Shown here: positions 55,266 through 64,000 of the stretch, piece after piece
Layout of the letters: each line of letters begins with the position of its first letter
Position numbering within the stretch: the stretch's first letter is position 1
Notes under the pieces: model-generated
What the model was told of the DNA's origin: nothing
The model's database searches: none
What the model saw: the letters and a program-made list of their open reading frames with translations, nothing else
Assembly (NCBI GenBank): GCA_963666835.2
Contig: CAXXGO010000003.1
Location: 320,001 to 384,000, forward strand
DNA: 64,000 nt
Direction of reading: 5' to 3'
From: Phycisphaerae bacterium
Lineage (GTDB): Bacteria; Planctomycetota; Phycisphaerae; UBA1845
Position numbers and translations under genes: made by a program

Positions 55266-56456
55266 TTATGTCTGTTTGGCGCGGCGTCGCCCAAAAAAGC
55301 CGCGGCGTCTTGTGGCCTTATCCAGGTCGGATTCGCCGTACCCGGATATCTTTCCGGCCAGGCGGCGGATTTCGGTACGGACGGGATTGTCGCGCTCGGC
55401 CGCGGCAATCGGTCGGCCGAAGTCGAGCGACTGCGCGACATACTGATAGTCATTGGGAATGGTTGCGAAGACGGGCTTCTTGATGAGTTCTTCAATGTCC
55501 TTGGCGCTGACTCTCCCACCGGAGCTGTCGCCGCGATTGACGATCACTTCGATGCGATCTTCCGGAATACCTAGCTTCACCAGGGCGTCGAAGTACCGCT
55601 CGGCATTCCTGATACTCGGGACAAGAAGTTGACAGACAATCAGAATAAGGTCCGCCTGCTGCAGAGCCGCAAAGGTCACCGGCGAAATGAACCGGGGTAT
55701 ATCTATCACAACCGACTCGTGCATCGTAGTCAGCAGCTCGATAACATGGTGCACGACATCAGCCGTAATCCCGTCACACTCCCCAACCAGACGCGGCCGC
55801 GCCAATAGCGCAACATTGCAGGGCAGCACGGTCAACACGTTTTCCAGAACGGTCTGGTCGACACCCGCGCCCGCGGTGGCGATGTCGTGGATGGTGTAAT
55901 CCGGCTCCCGGTCGAAGTTCGTCGCGAGATCTCCGAACTGCAGGTTCAGATCCACCAACCCGCAGTTCTTATCACCAAGATGGCCAATCTCCATCGCCAA
56001 GTTGCACGCAATCGAGGTCGCCCCCACGCCGCCGCTGGCGCCGGTCACGCAAACACACTTGCTTCGCCCCTGCGTCAGCAGACGTTTTGCGGCTACCCGG
56101 CTGACCGCTGCCGCCAAATCGGCATGGACGATCGGCTCGCACACATACTGATCACATCCCGCTCGAATCGGGGCCAAGATCGCGTTGGGACCCGTCTGAT
56201 GGCTCAACGCAATCATGGGAACCGTGGGATGGTGCTGGGACACCTGATCTATCACCTCGACAACCGAGTCGGCGTCGGGGTCGAGGTGGAGGAACAGCAG
56301 GTTGATCTCATGGTCGCGCATCAGCGCGGCGAGTTCATCGGGGGTGTTGACCTCCGTAACTAGCCGCACGAAGTTGAGACTCGATATGCTGTGCCTGAGC
56401 GTCTCGGACGACTCGGCATCCTGGTTATACAGGCAAACCTGGAGTATGCTACTCAT
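55266..56456 (-). CDS. CpaE/TadZ-like receiver plus MinD-type ATPase-like protein
   Basis: Degenerate receiver domain, GASGGVGATS.A.NLA, VDLNLQFGD, IPNDY. Confidence 0.82.
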   Translation of the reverse strand: MSSILQVCLYNQDAESSETLRHSISSLNFVRLVTEVNTPDELAALMRDHEINLLFLHLDPDADSVVEVIDQVSQHHPTVPMIALSHQTGPNAILAPIRAGCDQYVCEPIVHADLAAAVSRVAAKRLLTQGRSKCVCVTGASGGVGATSIACNLAMEIGHLGDKNCGLVDLNLQFGDLATNFDREPDYTIHDIATAGAGVDQTVLENVLTVLPCNVALLARPRLVGECDGITADVVHHVIELLTTMHESVVIDIPRFISPVTFAALQQADLILIVCQLLVPSIRNAERYFDALVKLGIPEDRIEVIVNRGDSSGGRVSAKDIEELIKKPVFATIPNDYQYVAQSLDFGRPIAAAERDNPVRTEIRRLAGKISGYGESDLDKATRRRGFFGRRRAKQT

Positions 56457-56692
56457 GGCGTTCCCACGATAGATGCCTAACCGTGCGTATTGTCCCCACC
56501 TACGTCTCTATCGGCGTGACTGTTGTGTCAGTTTCCATCAACGCCCTACGCAGGGAAGGTCCGAGAATGCTGCCCCGCAGGTTCCGCAAACGCCTCGCTC
56601 TTCATGCCTCCGCGCGCTGCGCTCATGAACTCGCCACTTACGCCCCCATCCGCTATGATCCGCCGCGCACTGCAACCAACGGAGAAGACCTC

Positions 56693-57499
56693 TTGCCATT
56701 ACCGCGAGCCCAAACCGGATTGATGCTCGGCGAGTTTCCGTTCGCACGCGTGGGCACCGGCTCACGTTCCCTGGTCGTGTTCCCGGGAATTATGGACGCC
56801 CTCCAGGACGTCACCGGTAATCCCCGGTTCATCGCTTGGTTCTGCCAAGCAATGACGTTCAGCCATACTGTGTTTTGGATTGGGCGCAGGCGAGGGCTTC
56901 CTCACGATCATTCAACGCGCGACATGGCCCGGGACTATGCCCGCCTCTTTGCGGAAGAACTGGGCCCCTGCGATGTGCTCGGTGTGTCCATGGGCAGCGC
57001 GATCGCCCAGGATTTCGCCGCCGATTTCCCCCAGCACGTCGACCGACTGGTGCTGGCGATGTGCGGTCCGCGAATGGAGCCGGAGAAGAAGGAGCTCTGC
57101 CGGAACTGGATCACGTTGGCTCAAGGTGCGAGATGGAGAGATCTGTACCTCGACATGATCGCCCGGACATACCGCCCGGCGCGCCGCGCAGTCTACCAGG
57201 CCCTGATGCCAACGGTTGACAGCGTCTTCTCCGAAAGCCCTACAATCGGCTCGGATTTCGTCGTCTCGGGCCAGGCTTGCCTGGACTTCGATACCTCGGA
57301 GCGCCTGCCGCTCATAAAGGCTCGGACTCTGGTGCTCGGCGGGGCCGAAGACGTTCTCATGCCGGCAGAAGGCATTCGCGAGGTGGCAGACCGCATCCCC
57401 GGGGCTTCACTTCACCTTTTCGAGGGCTCCGGGCACGGTGCGTTCGAGGAGTGCAAGGAGGAGTTCGACCGGGTTATTAGCGAGTTTCTGACCGGCTAG
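56693..57499 (+). CDS. Alpha/beta hydrolase
   Basis: GVSMG nucleophile elbow, GAED, GSGH; TTG start after GGAGA. Confidence 0.85.
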   Translation: MPLPRAQTGLMLGEFPFARVGTGSRSLVVFPGIMDALQDVTGNPRFIAWFCQAMTFSHTVFWIGRRRGLPHDHSTRDMARDYARLFAEELGPCDVLGVSMGSAIAQDFAADFPQHVDRLVLAMCGPRMEPEKKELCRNWITLAQGARWRDLYLDMIARTYRPARRAVYQALMPTVDSVFSESPTIGSDFVVSGQACLDFDTSERLPLIKARTLVLGGAEDVLMPAEGIREVADRIPGASLHLFEGSGHGAFEECKEEFDRVISEFLTG

Positions 57500-57536
57500 C
57501 CCGCCGGCAGAGCCCAGAGTCGCCGACCGACGCGAA

Positions 57537-57815
57537 TCAGATTCCGACCGACGGCGCGAATCCGGCGACCCGGACCACCAGGTGGGTCACAAGCGCTATC
57601 GCCTCCACAGCCAGTACCGCTATGGCAACAATGGCAAACCGCCGCTCTCGCGCCGATGGCCAAGCCCGGCCCACGAAGTCGATCGCGAAGAGAACACCGC
57701 CCGCCATTACGCCCGTACCGAGCATATTGAGGACGTGCCCTCAGCAGAACCTGTCCCTCAGCATGTAGCCCACCGGGGGCAAAAGAGACATGAACAGAGC
57801 GATTCTACCGGGCAT
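57537..57815 (-). CDS. Candidate small membrane selenoprotein (Cys24-Sec25); alternatively a nonsense-mutated gene
   Basis: GGAGAG RBS, ATG at 57815, in-frame TGA at 57743-57741, frame stays open to 57537; SECIS-like hairpin downstream. Confidence 0.6.
57699..57734 (-). promoter_or_regulatory. Bacterial SECIS-like stem-loop
   Basis: Upper stem UAUGCUCG/CGGGCGUA with a GUA apical loop 22 nt after the UGA; extendable lower stem. Confidence 0.55.
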
Positions 57816-57966
57816 AACGGCTCTCCGTAAAACAAGCGACAACCTGCTCTCGCCTAGCCGCCGAGGGAGGCCGAACCGCAAGCCGACCGCCACAGTCGGC
57901 CGGTCGAGGTCGCCGGTTCCATCCGGCGAGAGGCATAGAGCATCGACATCTAGGGTGCAAACCCCT

Positions 57967-57995
57967 TTGACATTCGTCAATCGTATCGCAAGAAT
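57967..57995 (+). promoter_or_regulatory. Putative panD promoter overlapped by a TTGAC-N4-GTCAA palindrome
   Basis: TTGACA-N17-AAGAAT; TTGACATTCGTCAA at 57967-57980. Confidence 0.45.
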
Positions 57996-58029
57996 AACCT
58001 GTCGTTACGGCAGAGGTAGGACTGGGATC

Positions 58030-58437
58030 ATGATGATTCAAATGCTTAAAGCGAAGCTGCACCAGGCGTGCGTCACACATTCCGATGTGGACTACGAGGG
58101 CAGTTTCGGGATCGACTCCGAGTTGATGGAGGCCGTCGGGATCTTCCCGTACGAGAAGGTCCTGATTTCCAATATCAACAACGGACATCGGCTGGAGACC
58201 TACGCTATCCCAGAGCCCCCGGGTTCGCGTCGCATGGTGCTCAACGGGGCGGCCGCGCGCCTCGGAGCTGCCGGCGATCGAGTCATCATCATGTCGTTCT
58301 GCTCTGTGGACGACGCAATCGTTCGTCGGGGCGAGTTTCGCCCGGAAGTCATTTGGCTGAACGAACAAAACGAAGTGGTCCGCCGGATTCCGACCGTCAC
58401 CGTCCGCGACAAGGTCGCAACAGCAGGCGACGACTAG
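58030..58437 (+). CDS. panD: Aspartate 1-decarboxylase
   Basis: MLKAKLH, YEGS self-cleavage site, NG.RLETY, LNGAAAR, GDRVII. Confidence 0.95.
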   Translation: MMIQMLKAKLHQACVTHSDVDYEGSFGIDSELMEAVGIFPYEKVLISNINNGHRLETYAIPEPPGSRRMVLNGAAARLGAAGDRVIIMSFCSVDDAIVRRGEFRPEVIWLNEQNEVVRRIPTVTVRDKVATAGDD

Positions 58438-58668
58438 TCGGCCTCCCGCGCACAGCCAAGCGATCTTCCCGGTCTGTCGGGTGGATCGCTCACCGGACCT
58501 CGCGTCAAACCTCGCCGCCTCAGATGCCGTGGTGGACCAAACGCCCAACCCGAGCGTGCGGGTCGCCGTTTGTCAGGGCAAGCTTCGCCGCGCCGCGGGA
58601 ATCAAGGCTCGGCTCACGGGACACACCTGCCGATAATCAGTAGGCTAGTCCATGTGGAGAGCAAGAAC

Positions 58669-60309
58669 ATGAACCAAGCGAAGCACAGACCCGTGGTGTT
58701 GATAATCCGTGACGGCTGGGGGGAGAACCCGGACCCGAAATGGAACGAATCCAATGCCATATTCCTCGCTCGGACCCCGGTGAACGACCGGTTGGCGCGG
58801 GATTACCCGCGAACGCTGATCCACACCAGCGGGGAAGCAGTCGGCCTGCCCGCCGGAGTGATGGGCAACAGCGAAGTTGGGCATCAGAACATCGGTGCGG
58901 GTCGGATGGTGGAGCAGGAGGTCATGCGCATCACCGGGCGAATCCGCGACGAGAGCTTTTTCGAGAACCCGGCGCTCACTGCGGTGTTCGACCGCGCCCG
59001 CGAGACGGGCGGCTGCGTACATTTTATGGGACTTTGCAGCGACGGTCGGGTCCACAGCGACCTTGACCACTTGTACGGACTGTTCGAAATGAGCCGTCGG
59101 TTGCACTTCCCCGGTGAGCGGATCTTCGTTCATGCATTCATGGACGGCCGGGACACGCCTCCACATAGCGGAATCCAGTACATCGAGGAGATAGAAGCGA
59201 AATGCCGCGAGTTCGGCATCAACCCCGTGGCCAGCGTTATCGGGCGCTACTACGCCATGGATCGGGATAATCGTTGGGGGCGGGTGGAGAAGGCCTATCG
59301 CATGCTGACCCACGGTGAGGGTACGGTCTTCGCCTCGGCCACCGACGCGCTGCGAGATTACTATGAGAACCCGAGCGAACCCAGCCGGGTCGGTGACGAG
59401 TTCGTAACCGCCAGCCTCGTCCTGCAAAGCAATGACAAGCCGGCGACAATCCGCGATGGTGATAGTGTAGTCTTCTTTAATTACCGCGGGGACCGCCCGC
59501 GCGAATTAACCAAGGCCTTTGTTTACGACGAGTTTCCGTTCGAAGGCACCGGACTGGACGGAAAGGTCACCGGCTTTGCCCGAAGCGACAAGCTGGATCT
59601 GTGTTTCGTCACTATGACGGCCTACGAGGAGGGGCTGCCCGTAGACGTTGCCTTCGAGAAACCGCCCAAACTGAAGGACATTCTCGGGTCGTACCTGTCG
59701 GAACACGGGTTGACGCAATTCCGCTGCGCGGAAACCGAGAAGTACCCGCATGTGACCTTCTTCTTCAACGATTACCAGGTTGAACCGCACCCAGGGGAGC
59801 AATGGCATCTCGTCCCGTCGCCACGTGAGGTCAGTACGTACGATCAGAAACCGGAGATGTCCGCCGATGCGGTGACCGACGTGGTTCTGCGGCGTCTCGC
59901 CGGGGCCGATGACGACGTCATGATTATCAACCTCGCTAACGGAGATATGGTCGGGCACACGGGCAACTTGGCGGCGGCAATCAAGGCCGTCGAGACAGTC
60001 GACAAATGCGTCGGCGTGATGGTCGAGGCGGTGATGGAAAAAGGCGGCGGATTAATCATCACGGCGGACCACGGGAATTGCGAACAGCTTATCGACCCGG
60101 AGACCGGCGGACCTCACACCGCCCATACCACTTACGATGTCGAACTACTGGTCATCGACGACCGCTTCAAGGGACGCTCCCTGCGCAAGGGCGGCAGCTT
60201 GGCCGACGTCGCCCCTACCCTTCTGGCAATGCTGGGTCTGGACAAGCCGGAGAGCATGACCGGGTCGTCATTGATCGTGCATACCCCCTGTTCGTGCGCC
60301 GCCCGGTGA
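58669..60309 (+). CDS. gpmI: 2,3-bisphosphoglycerate-independent phosphoglycerate mutase
   Basis: DGWG, MGNSEVGH, DGRDT, GRYYAMDRD, AETEKYPHVTFF, DMVGHTG, TADHGN. Confidence 0.96.
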   Translation: MNQAKHRPVVLIIRDGWGENPDPKWNESNAIFLARTPVNDRLARDYPRTLIHTSGEAVGLPAGVMGNSEVGHQNIGAGRMVEQEVMRITGRIRDESFFENPALTAVFDRARETGGCVHFMGLCSDGRVHSDLDHLYGLFEMSRRLHFPGERIFVHAFMDGRDTPPHSGIQYIEEIEAKCREFGINPVASVIGRYYAMDRDNRWGRVEKAYRMLTHGEGTVFASATDALRDYYENPSEPSRVGDEFVTASLVLQSNDKPATIRDGDSVVFFNYRGDRPRELTKAFVYDEFPFEGTGLDGKVTGFARSDKLDLCFVTMTAYEEGLPVDVAFEKPPKLKDILGSYLSEHGLTQFRCAETEKYPHVTFFFNDYQVEPHPGEQWHLVPSPREVSTYDQKPEMSADAVTDVVLRRLAGADDDVMIINLANGDMVGHTGNLAAAIKAVETVDKCVGVMVEAVMEKGGGLIITADHGNCEQLIDPETGGPHTAHTTYDVELLVIDDRFKGRSLRKGGSLADVAPTLLAMLGLDKPESMTGSSLIVHTPCSCAAR

Positions 60310-60752
60310 AATCGCCAGGGCGGGAGCGCAGCGCAGTCGACTGACCTATAACTGTCACACAAAACGTAGTTCCTAGCCCGGATTACTCATAACATCCGCA
60401 CAAATGCGCGTAACTTACTGTAGCGTAACCTCTTGTGGGTGGCGCCAATGAGACACGGCGCGTTTCCACGCCCAGGATATGCCCTGGCGCTACATTGGTT
60501 CACGGCCTTTTCTTCGCTTACGTGAATAGCCCGGGCTGACCAGCAGACGTTGCTAAGTTCCAACCAGAGTCCGATCATCGGCCCGCTTGCGGGGTTTCTC
60601 TGCCATGTTGCCGTGCGGCAACGGTGGCGTGAAAACGTCCGGCCGATCTGCCGATGATGATCGAGGACCAACGCCCGCGTTGCCTCCGCACAACATAGGC
60701 GGGCTTGGGCACAAATGGGTCGGGTCATAATAACAGTGCTCTGGAGAACGAG

Positions 60753-61907
60753 ATGACGCCGGATTCACAAGCGGATTCTGCGGCGAAGCGCAAGACGTGG
60801 GACCTGTCCGCGTTTGCCCCGGCGATCTTAGATTCGCTCGATGCCGGCTTGCTGATAGTTGATCGTGATCGGACGATTCTCTACCGCAACAAGGTCGCGA
60901 AGGCGATGTTGATCCACGGCAACGATCTCGATACCGCGTTCCGCAACGCGAGGTTCCTCGATAAGTTCCCCGGTTGGGAGCAGGCCGTTGGCACAGTCCT
61001 CGACCGGAAAGATGAAGTCAGAATCCCCTGCGCTATCCCGACAATGGAGAAGGCCGGCCCAAAACTTGTGCTTCTGCGCTGTATGCCGTTGGTAGACCGG
61101 GGTCATGGGCAATCATGCGCCGTGATCACGCTGACCCAAGCGGAGAGCCCGCCCGCATTGAGCCAGGACCATCTCGAGGTCTCCCAACGTCTGGTCTCGC
61201 TGGGCCGGTTAGCGGCTCGGGTAGCCCACGAACTGAACAACCCTCTCGACGGGATCCTGCGATATGTGAACCTCGCCATCCGACTGGCCGGCGATGAGGC
61301 CTCGGAACCGAAGCTCAACACCTACCTCTCCGAGTCACGCACCGGGCTGCTGAGAATGGTACGGATCATCGGTGACCTTTTGGAGTTCTCGCGGACGACC
61401 GATGGCGAATTCGACGAGATGAATGTGAACGAGGTCGTCGAGCAGGCGGTTCGCAATGTGACGTCGACTGCCGATATGAGCCGAATCGTCGTAACGGTCG
61501 ATCTCCAGAATCACGACGCGCCGGTCCTGCGGAGTAGCCGGCTCTATCAGGTGTGCTGCAACCTCATCAAGAACGCGATCGACGCCATGCCCGACGGCGG
61601 CCGGCTCAGCCTGACCACCGGAGTGGTCGAAGGCACTGTGATTATCCGGGTAGCGGATACGGGGGTCGGTCTGCCGCCCGACGCCGACCGGGTCTTTGAA
61701 CCATTCTTCACTACCAAAGAGCCCGGTAAGGGAACCGGCTTAGGCCTGGCGATTTGCCGGGACTTCGTTGAGGACATGCACGGAACAATCGAGGCCTCAC
61801 CGGGAGAGGACGGAGGCGCCGTCTTCACCATCCAGGTCCCCGTCGAAACTCGGCATCGCCCCTCGCGGTTGACCGGATCGACGCCGGAGGGGCATCTTGG
61901 CTTGTAG
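60753..61907 (+). CDS. Cytoplasmic PAS-like sensor histidine kinase
   Basis: VAHELNNPL H-box, NLIKNAIDA, DTGVG, FEPFFTTK, GTGLGL; no TM segment seen. Confidence 0.92.
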   Translation: MTPDSQADSAAKRKTWDLSAFAPAILDSLDAGLLIVDRDRTILYRNKVAKAMLIHGNDLDTAFRNARFLDKFPGWEQAVGTVLDRKDEVRIPCAIPTMEKAGPKLVLLRCMPLVDRGHGQSCAVITLTQAESPPALSQDHLEVSQRLVSLGRLAARVAHELNNPLDGILRYVNLAIRLAGDEASEPKLNTYLSESRTGLLRMVRIIGDLLEFSRTTDGEFDEMNVNEVVEQAVRNVTSTADMSRIVVTVDLQNHDAPVLRSSRLYQVCCNLIKNAIDAMPDGGRLSLTTGVVEGTVIIRVADTGVGLPPDADRVFEPFFTTKEPGKGTGLGLAICRDFVEDMHGTIEASPGEDGGAVFTIQVPVETRHRPSRLTGSTPEGHLGL

Positions 61908-61964
61908 GAACTCGGGCTTTCTGCGCGTGTCGCGGCCCCGGCCGCACGAGTAGAGGAACTTCTC

Positions 61965-63365
61965 ATGCCGCCCAATAGCGAAACGAAAGCCAGAATCCTG
62001 ATCGTCGATGACGACCGGATCATCTTGGATTCCCTCGGCGAGTTTCTGCGCCTGGAGGGGTTCGAGCCGCTGACGGCCACCTCGTTTGCCGAAGCGACCC
62101 GGCTAATGCACCAACAGGCGGCCGATCTGATCATCTGCGACGTGAACATGCCCCGCGGAAACGGCTTCGAGCTGTTGCACGTTGCCCGCGAGAAGTGGCC
62201 CGACACCGTCGTCATCATGATCACAGCTTACGGAACGATTGAGAGCGCGGTCGAAGCCATCAAGATGGGCGCCTACGACTACCTGACCAAGCCCATCATC
62301 GACGACGAGCTCCGCCTTTGTGTCGAACGGGCGATGGCCCAGCAGAAAATCCTCCACGAGAACCGTGAGCTCAAGGAGAGACTCCACCATCGCTTCGGTA
62401 TGGAGAACGTCGTCGGGCAGGACTATCGCATGGTCAAGCTGTACGATCTAATTAACTCCGTAGCGGATTCCAAGGTCACGGTGTTGGTCCAGGGGGCGTC
62501 GGGGACCGGCAAGTCCCTGATTGCACGGGTGATCCACGATCAAAGCAATCGCGCCGAAAAGCCCTTCGTCGAAGTGAGCTGTGGAGCCATCCCCGAGACG
62601 TTGCTGGAAAGCGAACTGTTCGGCTACGTTCGCGGAGCGTTCACCGGGGCGGTCGCCAACAAACCCGGCAAGTTCAAGGCCGCCCACGGTGGGACCATCT
62701 TCCTGGACGAAATCGCCTCTGCCTCGCCGGGTTTGCAGGTGAAACTCCTGCGCGTGCTGCAGACCCAGCAGTTCGAGCCCGTCGGGAGCACCAAAACCCA
62801 GAAGGTCGACGTGCGGGTCATCCTGGCCACGAACCTCAACTTGGAGGAGGCCGTGCGAGACGGCACCTTCCGCGAGGATCTGTACTATCGGGTGAACGTC
62901 GTGACGATCGACATGCCGACCTTGTCCGAGAGAGTGTCTGACATCCCGCTCTTGGCCGCACACTTTCTGCGTGCAAGCTGCACAGAGATGAAACGGAGCA
63001 TCCGCGGCTTCGACGACCAGGCCATGGAGGTGCTGCAGAGATACCACTGGCCCGGCAACGTTCGAGAATTGGAGAACGCCGTAGCGCGCGGCGTGGTCTT
63101 GTGCAAGCATCATACCATCGGTGTTGACGACTTGCCGCCTAAGTTGGTCGAGTCGGCGGAGACCTTTGAGCCACCGGAGCATTACCAGCCGATGCCGCTC
63201 AAGCAGGCCCTCGAACAACCCGAGAAGCGCATTCTCGAAGCCGCGTTGCGGGCCAACGGCTGGAATCGCCAGGCCACGGCCGAGCAACTCGACATCAACC
63301 GCACGACTCTCTACAAGAAGATGAAGCGTTACGGCCTGGAGGGCGAGCCGGTGAGAACGCAGTGA
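61965..63365 (+). CDS. NtrC-family sigma54-dependent response regulator
   Basis: Receiver domain, GASGTGKS, ESELFG..GAFTGA, WPGNVREL, Fis-type HTH. Confidence 0.95.
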   Translation: MPPNSETKARILIVDDDRIILDSLGEFLRLEGFEPLTATSFAEATRLMHQQAADLIICDVNMPRGNGFELLHVAREKWPDTVVIMITAYGTIESAVEAIKMGAYDYLTKPIIDDELRLCVERAMAQQKILHENRELKERLHHRFGMENVVGQDYRMVKLYDLINSVADSKVTVLVQGASGTGKSLIARVIHDQSNRAEKPFVEVSCGAIPETLLESELFGYVRGAFTGAVANKPGKFKAAHGGTIFLDEIASASPGLQVKLLRVLQTQQFEPVGSTKTQKVDVRVILATNLNLEEAVRDGTFREDLYYRVNVVTIDMPTLSERVSDIPLLAAHFLRASCTEMKRSIRGFDDQAMEVLQRYHWPGNVRELENAVARGVVLCKHHTIGVDDLPPKLVESAETFEPPEHYQPMPLKQALEQPEKRILEAALRANGWNRQATAEQLDINRTTLYKKMKRYGLEGEPVRTQ

Positions 63366-63535
63366 ACAGGCGATCTTGCCGGCAGACCATCGACGATGAA
63401 GCCGGCCGCGAGCCGAGTGTCTCCAACGGCACCAAGAGTCGCCCTCGGCGAGCCGCACGAACGCTCCCTCAAGGGCCGGCCACGGCTGCAAGGCGGGAAC
63501 ATGAGAGACGCGCGCCGTTGGAGGCGAAGCCGGGG

Positions 63536-63563
63536 TTGCGAGAGGTCGACGAAACAGTATGCT
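63536..63563 (+). promoter_or_regulatory. Putative sigma70 promoter for the tRNA
   Basis: TTGCGA-N16-TATGCT ending 10 nt before the tRNA. Confidence 0.55.
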
Positions 63564-63573
63564 TTGGCCCAGC

Positions 63574-63647
63574 GCCGGCGTAGCTCAGTTGGTTAGAGCG
63601 CCTGCCTGTGGAGCAGGAGGTCCTTGGTTCGAGCCCAAGCGCCGGTA
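63574..63647 (+). tRNA. tRNA-His (GTG), CCA not encoded
   Basis: Cloverleaf: GCCGGCG/CGCCGGT acceptor, GCTC/GAGC D stem, CCTGC-CTGTGGA-GCAGG anticodon arm, CTTGG-TTCGAGC-CCAAG T arm. Confidence 0.95.
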
Positions 63648-64000
63648 GTTGTAAGTTGTTGTAAACAAAGCAGTTACTAAAACAAAGGCGGAGCCGGGGG
63701 TGGAGTGTGCGCGGTGTTTTCGGCCGCTACGCGATGGCGGTTCCCGCTCCTGGAATGCGCATAGCAGCCACGCCCACACTGATCAGGAGACCGCCGAAGG
63801 TCACCGTCACTTCAGATCAAACAGGCCCTTATGGCCCGCTTGGCCAGACCAGCCGATTTCGTAGAGTCGAGCGTGGGCCGTGCCGATGTCGAGTCGGGCG
63901 TGGACCGTTTCAAAGCCTGATACGCGTGCTCGGTAATCAAACTCGCGTCAGACACTGTCCGACAATCTACAAGTGAACTGGTTCTCTCTTCACCTGTTGT

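Follow-up and report, generated by a model that had tools for sequence, protein, structure and literature searches.

The open reading frame at positions 57537..57815 on the minus strand of the window, by which we mean the whole 64,000-nucleotide stretch of Phycisphaerae DNA under analysis, almost certainly codes for a selenoprotein of 92 codons. Its in-frame UGA at codon 25 would be read as selenocysteine (Sec) by SelB and tRNA-Sec on a SECIS hairpin that lies within the open reading frame, and the product of this stand-alone gene is predicted to be a small inner-membrane protein with a helix-CU-helix core, to which a third helix or an N-terminal helix is variably added. The conservation of the UGA, the SECIS element, the selection acting on the coding region and the fact that the Sec machinery is present all emerge from sequence comparison, and it is from them that we infer the insertion of Sec. 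The protein belongs to a real and apparently uncatalogued selenoprotein family, common in one planctomycete lineage and halved by gene finders, which follows the known bacterial mode of decoding and is unusual in its build and in the scarcity of its Cys forms.

The gene opens with an ATG at position 57815 and closes with a TGA at 57539-57537. Five nucleotides ahead of the ATG lies a ribosome-binding site, GGAGAG (57821..57826, minus strand), and purine-rich stretches precede the equivalent start in many homologues. The original prediction had described a single frame split by a TGA at 57743-57741, and its coordinates for this codon, for the ribosome-binding site with its 5-nt spacer and for the start codon agree with ours, as does the readthrough product of 92 amino acids with U25 that we obtained on translation. 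In the structure model (pLDDT 74, pTM 0.45), three helices comprise residues 2-22 (57750..57812), 28-50 (57666..57734) and, after a basic loop, 55-83 (57567..57653; all on the minus strand); the CU pair occupies the first loop, with Cys24 encoded at 57744..57746 and Sec25 at 57741..57743, both on the minus strand. These helices match the three hydrophobic segments foreseen earlier, with the qualification that helix 1 of the window member is only weakly hydrophobic (a 19-residue Kyte-Doolittle peak of 1.16 versus a family mean of 1.4-1.6). Helix 1 carries an invariant Gly16 and belongs to the part dropped by gene finders.

The gene is present as a single copy in the genome, and it stands alone rather than in an operon. 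A convergent alpha/beta hydrolase gene ends 37 bp beyond its stop codon, and on its other side it shares a divergent intergenic region (57816..58029) with panD, which starts at 58030 on the plus strand. A sigma70-like site on the plus strand (57967-57995) is oriented toward panD, and no promoter for the selenoprotein gene was identified in this intergenic region. An Rfam search over positions 56000-64000 returned tRNA only. Elsewhere in the window, a gene for a protein with a receiver domain and a ParA/MinD-like ATPase (55266-56456, minus strand) and a tRNA-His gene (63574-63647, plus strand) have no apparent link to the selenoprotein.

The UGA recurs throughout the family within the motif C-U-G-[H/D]-P-L-x-x-L-G. 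C-U-G stood at the same place in 15 of 15 loci fetched, and of the 61 distinct members that we read, 60 have TGA at the motif and one has Cys; the terminal stop codons of these 60 Sec members vary (TGA 26, TAG 22, TAA 12). A sequencing or assembly error, or a nonsense mutation, can be ruled out, since the same TGA stands unchanged in the full-length contig X3 of a second study, X1 being possibly the sample of origin, and in-frame TGA is found in 116 of 117 matches across the order. The stretch ahead of the TGA, which the original prediction expected to be conserved, is so, and both sides evolve under purifying selection: in eight non-overlapping close pairs, dN/dS is 0.19 for the part upstream of the UGA and 0.29 for the part downstream of the SECIS hairpin. 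The residue directly before Sec is Cys in 54 of the 60 Sec members (G 4, S 1, V 1), and the six replacements of Cys24 correspond to 2-3 changes on bootstrap trees. Two residues after Sec we found H 38 times, D 13 times, G three times, E twice and other residues four times (n = 60); the family alignment contains no other conserved Cys. The position of the CU pair in the first loop, as initially proposed, is borne out by the model, whereas the His thought to adjoin it is in fact two residues removed from Sec and is not conserved.

The SECIS hairpin (57690..57742, minus strand) begins at the UGA and carries an 8-bp upper stem (57726-57708) capped by the apical loop GUA (57718-57716), whose leading G and distance of 22 nt from the UGA had been correctly anticipated, as folding confirmed. 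Its fold of -27.3 kcal/mol (z -4.65) was matched in stability by none of 200 dinucleotide shuffles and by 3 of 500 synonymous recodings of the window peptide. The window hairpin, with a loop of 3 nt, a stem of 8 bp, G in first place, a distance of 22 nt and a core of -10.0, lies within the constraints listed for bacterial SECIS elements, namely a 3-9-nt loop, a 4-16-bp stem, G at loop position 1-2, 16-37 nt from the UGA and a minimum free energy of -7.5 or lower (PMC13188914). Across the family, 57 of 59 members have the loop at 22 nt, and its Gly codon is GGT in 53 of 56 cases versus 66 of 551 for other Gly codons. Synonymous divergence in the eight close pairs amounts to 0.14 in the SECIS core versus 0.44-0.46 elsewhere, and the core folds better than its synonymous recodings (median z -1.47; below -1 in 42 of 60 members), while control windows fell below -1 in 12 of 55 and 10 of 60 cases. 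One stem pair co-varies (C-G 34 and U-A 17 of 57), with a p-value that overstates the significance because the rows are related. The apical loop G-GU(A/C)-C is common to SelD and three other selenoprotein candidates of the genome, with a distance of 35 nt in SelD and 21-22 nt in the other three, so that the hairpin described here is of the organism's own type.

The Sec machinery that the original prediction had proposed to look for is encoded in the genome, with SelA, SelB, two SelD genes and a tRNA-Sec that is its sole tRNA with a TCA anticodon. One of the SelD genes (L004, G000:C1:1328296-1329225, minus strand; L005, C6:1524365-1525294, plus strand) has an in-frame TGA and one has not; the copy without it sits inside a 740-codon open frame, suggesting a fusion. 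Among the 251 genomes of the order, SelA is found in 106 of 111 carriers of the family versus 104 of 140 non-carriers. The remaining five carriers all have tRNA-Sec and two of them have SelB, which was also found in all five named carriers tested. Among the matches listed, 29 genomes of family f6 (e.g., G346, G353, G360, G365) yielded two SelA matches each at about half the usual score, a hint that selA in this lineage is split or carries an insertion.

A search with the single protein matched 23 of 41 genomes at E 0.1. With a 15-row profile the family was present in 111 of the 251 genomes, a scan in which the best 21 candidates per genome were scored and misses are possible; it adds a lineage-common family to the bacterial selenoproteome. 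In a second order it occurs in 10 of 81 genomes, with TGA in 10 of 10, and elsewhere in the phylum it turns up only rarely, with five true matches in 300 genomes after removal of one false match (G108, L029), which has no start and reads GC rather than CC. A DNA pattern demanding Cys ahead of the TGA, run over all species genomes, located at least 119 loci; 86 of the 119 matches listed are attributable to chance, with profile scores below 20 bits, and among the 33 listed above 20 bits, 32 are named Planctomycetota and one Verrucomicrobiota. The Planctomycetota among the matches listed comprise many Phycisphaerae and also Pirellulaceae, Gemmataceae, Isosphaeraceae and Rohdeia mirabilis Pla163, a cultured carrier with a two-helix form of the protein and with SelB. 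Databases mostly show a truncated half of the protein: a profile search of 1.84 billion protein representatives gave 48 matches, 35 of them with the post-UGA half only and 13 of full length, and we read 19 of the 48, all 13 full-length ones included. Database protein P0011 starts truncated at Met31, and in P0047 the post-UGA half follows 41 unrelated N-terminal residues, which may reflect an insertion or a chimeric gene call. A word-indexed protein search returned two matches from 8000 candidates.

Homologues keep the TGA at codon 25, a point that the original prediction had proposed to look for. Cys forms are few. A Cys aligned to the UGA occurs in L058:6413-6790, P0003, P0004, P0005, P0023 and P0042, and at the DNA level in one of 117 matches. 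In the 13 full-length database homologues, the Sec position holds Cys five times, Trp twice (P0006, P0009) and other residues six times; eight of the 13 have neither Cys nor Sec there, from which it follows that the scaffold can persist without a chalcogen. Trp or Arg at this codon in homologues had been named as evidence against Sec, and the retained TGA speaks in favor of Sec. The residues found in the full-length database proteins form the main counter-evidence; the two Trp forms among them may be gene calls made under code 4, or real. The locus DNA of P0009 was not found in the metagenome scan, and a pattern with a Cys or Trp codon gave no match in metagenome contigs. Tandem copies were seen at two loci. 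In one (L058:6413-7045, plus strand) the Sec copy comes second, after a Cys copy whose tail is rich in His; this Cys paralogue clusters with its Sec twin (98/94), and it has lost the SECIS stem and gained the tail. In the other (L059:5590-6214, plus strand) both of the adjacent copies are Sec forms, one of them with C-U-V-P-P.

In its UGA, the hairpin 3' of it, the G-first 3-nt loop at 22 nt and the equipment with SelA, SelB, SelD and tRNA-Sec, the gene resembles the bacterial selenoprotein genes with a SECIS element inside the reading frame that are treated in PMC13188914. It differs from them in that their Cys homologues are usually abundant and those of the window family are rare. This near-absence of Cys forms reverses the usual pattern and explains why searches based on Cys/Sec pairs would miss the family.

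The original prediction of an unannotated membrane selenoprotein is supported, with the TGA kept in homologues, the Sec machinery present and the part ahead of the TGA conserved; family libraries gave no match. NCBIfam release 20 offered no family for the query, the best stray matches being at E 0.006 for 15 members and E 0.0014 for 10 non-Sec homologues, and the 15 members did not match the NCBIfam models of CU-motif families; no Pfam family was common to more than two of 62 members. The PDB sequence search gave one match at E 2.4, and Foldseek found nothing at E 0.001. A fold search returned generic helical bundles only, the best at Z 8.3 with an rmsd of 2.7 over 84 residues among unrelated three-helix bundles, and Atlas feature matches were all below 0.9. 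Table 1 of PMC13188914 (119 families, 2026) contains no match by motif or domain; seven of its families have a plain CU and one has CUxxT, and none of these is described there as a small membrane protein. The placement of Sec in the outer loop of a membrane hairpin of 50-90 residues is a build absent from that catalogue, as far as its tabulated descriptions go. In Table S9 of PMC4807772 one plain 'hypothetical' entry is given by IMG ids only and is not comparable by sequence. We found no description of the family in the literature searched; Haft and Tolstoy (2025) and the groundwater candidate lists of Deng et al. may bear on its novelty. SaoL, SaoB, SaoC, HgcA, MbdU, KCU-star (DUF466) and Csac_0668 share with it the vicinal Cys-Sec pair, and their database entries are likewise cut short at the UGA. 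Judged from name and description, they comprise enzymes, binding proteins and CU-terminal proteins, several of them in conserved operons, whereas the window family is a stand-alone membrane protein of two to four helices with CU in a loop.

The build of the protein varies around this loop. Helix 3 is missing in five of 60 members (52-54 aa), whose chain stops in a basic tail behind helix 2, and an extra helix at the N-terminus is seen in several named members, so that members range from two to four helices and the conserved unit is a two-helix hairpin. A Pirellulaceae member (L080:1225-2385, plus strand) is extended at both ends, by further helices at the N-terminus and by a soluble stretch of about 230 aa at the C-terminus that gives a weak CarboxypepD_reg match (E 0.0055). 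Judged by counts of Lys plus Arg, the CU loop lies outside, and the N-terminus lies inside together with the loop between helices 2 and 3 or, in two-helix forms, the tail; the averages, inside versus outside, are 3.2 versus 1.3 per three-helix protein and 3.6 versus 1.2 per two-helix protein. Sec probably faces the periplasm by this measure; the CU flank averages one Lys/Arg and the charge bias is modest. A lipoprotein was set aside by inspection, as Phe or Tyr stands before the Cys in most members and some members have no Cys.

For the function of the protein we tentatively favor, by analogy and at somewhat less than an even chance, a selenol redox center at the membrane surface with an optional resolving Cys. 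In the topology, redox cycle and partnership that we infer, the hairpin would hold Sec25 as a reactive selenolate at the outer, periplasm-facing membrane surface, where it would attack an oxidant or a disulfide or persulfide. Cys24, where present, would form a vicinal selenenylsulfide that resolves the intermediate, as thioredoxin reductase does with its Gly-Cys-Sec-Gly tail, and a genetically unlinked envelope reductant would recycle it. The protein could not relay electrons across the membrane alone, since it has no second conserved Cys. A fixed Sec next to a Cys that is replaceable in 6 of 60 members would be the pattern of a nucleophile and its resolving residue, and Cys-Sec-Gly is known as the redox tail of mammalian thioredoxin reductase (PMC11508645). 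With that tail the family shares Cys-Sec-Gly (Gly-Cys-Sec-Gly in a few members), and a vicinal selenenylsulfide ring is possible in principle; the analogy is chemical only, as the window family has no flavoprotein body, its Sec is membrane-embedded and not terminal, and its Cys is dispensable in those six members.

No conserved operon exists; the 302 neighboring ORFs from 59 loci cluster among close kin only, and the divergent panD recurs at three of the 59 (the window and two others). Pfam searches on 96 of the 302 neighbors yielded a heterogeneous set without a theme and no conserved redox neighbor, with one peroxiredoxin among the 96. Exported Omp28-like thioredoxin-fold proteins are the obvious partners in the genome, and they do not co-occur with the family, which is present in 18 of the 36 genomes that score highest for them versus a base rate of 111/251; this search was noisy, because the C-terminal part of the model matches widely, and the best seven candidates per genome were scored. 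These results, the homologues without a chalcogen, the modest charge bias and the scarcity of Cys forms, which PMC13188914 would make atypical for ordinary thiol oxidoreductases, all weaken the redox reading.

Fairly unlikely, and best placed among the alternatives, is a soft-metal or metalloid site (Hg, Cu, Ag, As) at the membrane surface, in which Cys, Sec and the H, D or E at position +2 would bind a metal in order to scavenge it, sense it or pass it to a transporter. That +2 residue is H, D or E in 53 of 60 members, the C-terminal tails of the Cys paralogue and of P0005 are rich in His and predicted to lie on the same side, two of 59 loci have P-type ATPase genes nearby, and the organometallic SAO and HgcA selenoproteins are characterized by CU dipeptides (bioRxiv 2022.07.06.499078). 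Set against this are the 59 loci, which show no conserved mer, cop or ars neighborhood, the members without Cys24, and the lack of a conserved cytoplasmic Cys pair that could take over the metal. MerT (PF02411), including selenoproteins named 'putative mercuric transport protein', is similarly small, with about three helices and two adjacent Cys residues close to where the first hydrophobic stretch ends. MerT has a second, cytoplasmic Cys pair and a mer operon context. This second pair is visible in the MerT-like rows that we fetched and is missing from the window family, as is the mer context, and the known Sec form of MerT has a C/SxxU motif; kinship was not supported by a profile-profile comparison (2.3%, with six planctomycete MerT-like rows) in which the Cys pairs remained unaligned. 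The original prediction had left redox and soft-metal roles side by side, and the variable His together with a Cys that is dispensable in some members shifts the weight from a Cys/Sec/His metal site toward Sec-centered chemistry.

The scarcity of Cys forms would be explained by a job specific to selenium, as a membrane sink, carrier or sensor that binds selenide or perselenide at the envelope, for instance, or reports selenium supply through the ratio of full-length to truncated product. We consider this improbable. In its favor, TGA is absent in only one of 117 DNA-level matches, the Cys/Trp-codon pattern drew a blank in the metagenome contigs, 36 genomes lack both SelA and the family, and all five SelA-negative carriers have tRNA-Sec; nearly all selenoenzymes are said in PMC13188914 to have more abundant Cys homologues. 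Yet the neighbors scanned include no sel genes or selenium transporters, the protein library holds at least five Cys forms, and 104 of 210 SelA-positive genomes gave no match, which shows that the family is not core Sec machinery. A broader conception, to which we give little credence, is that of a nearly selenium-obligate planctomycete envelope device, a minimal two-helix hairpin whose periplasmic Sec would perform chemistry beyond the reach of Cys (selenium capture or sensing, an oxidation-resistant redox or metal site) and which would be lost rather than turned to Cys when Sec decoding goes. If true, such a device would be a minimal model for Sec retention and an example of a class that discovery methods based on Cys/Sec pairs miss. 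The family itself offers a compact setting in which to ask what Sec can do and Cys cannot, made testable by its natural CU, GU and CC variants and a cultured carrier.

Somewhat more improbable still is a part in some larger membrane complex, as a small subunit of accessory or regulatory kind on a DUF4190-like scaffold, with Sec serving as a redox switch or covalent tether instead of a catalyst. The chalcogen-free homologues that keep the scaffold would suit such a subunit, and so would the cores that bear additional helices at the N-terminus and the one case of fusion to a soluble domain at the C-terminus. DUF4190 (PF13828) shares the hydrophobic hairpin with a central Cys, the basic loop and a third helix, and a DUF4190 cluster structurally resembles the Cys paralogue (TM 0.79 by query). 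The profile likeness to DUF4190 (46.6%) is nevertheless confined to 25 columns of helix 3, where a score of 25.4 compares with at most 14.8 in 30 column shuffles and with 21.0 in a reversed control, and no partner gene is linked. The CD225/dispanin family (PF04505) has an 'FCC' motif on its side, and kinship to it was not supported (3.6%, on a three-row CD225 alignment). That the UGA is a real stop or a Trp codon, so that the locus would yield a peptide of 24 residues and, separately, a protein of 62, or be a conserved pseudogene, is very improbable indeed: the 35 post-UGA fragments among the 48 library matches and the two Trp-bearing proteins would agree with it, but neither TAA nor TAG occupies the site in any of 60 members although their terminal stops vary, contiguous Cys homologues exist, both halves are under selection around a constrained hairpin, and the gene itself ends in TGA in a genome whose only TCA-anticodon tRNA is tRNA-Sec.

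A rough scan of the genome for further Sec genes produced 37 candidates, of which nine sites were read and three were convincing. These three (L203, G000:C6:417381; L204, C6:886751; L205, C6:954496; all on the plus strand) are likely selenoproteins, apparently exported, that score below the NCBIfam cut-offs, and they comprise one DUF1573/OS_HP2-like protein and two Omp28-related UxxC proteins, one of the latter joined to a multiheme cytochrome c region and thrombospondin-type repeats. A TGA is also present in a further Omp28-like match, at G000:C1:1961902-1962549. One more Sec site may exist in a 1119-codon, Cys-rich and probably exported ORF (L206:364-3720, plus strand; G000:C6:1476308) that has no family match, where an in-frame TGA near codon 916 (G-U-M-C-H) stands ahead of a hairpin of 8 bp with the loop GGUC.
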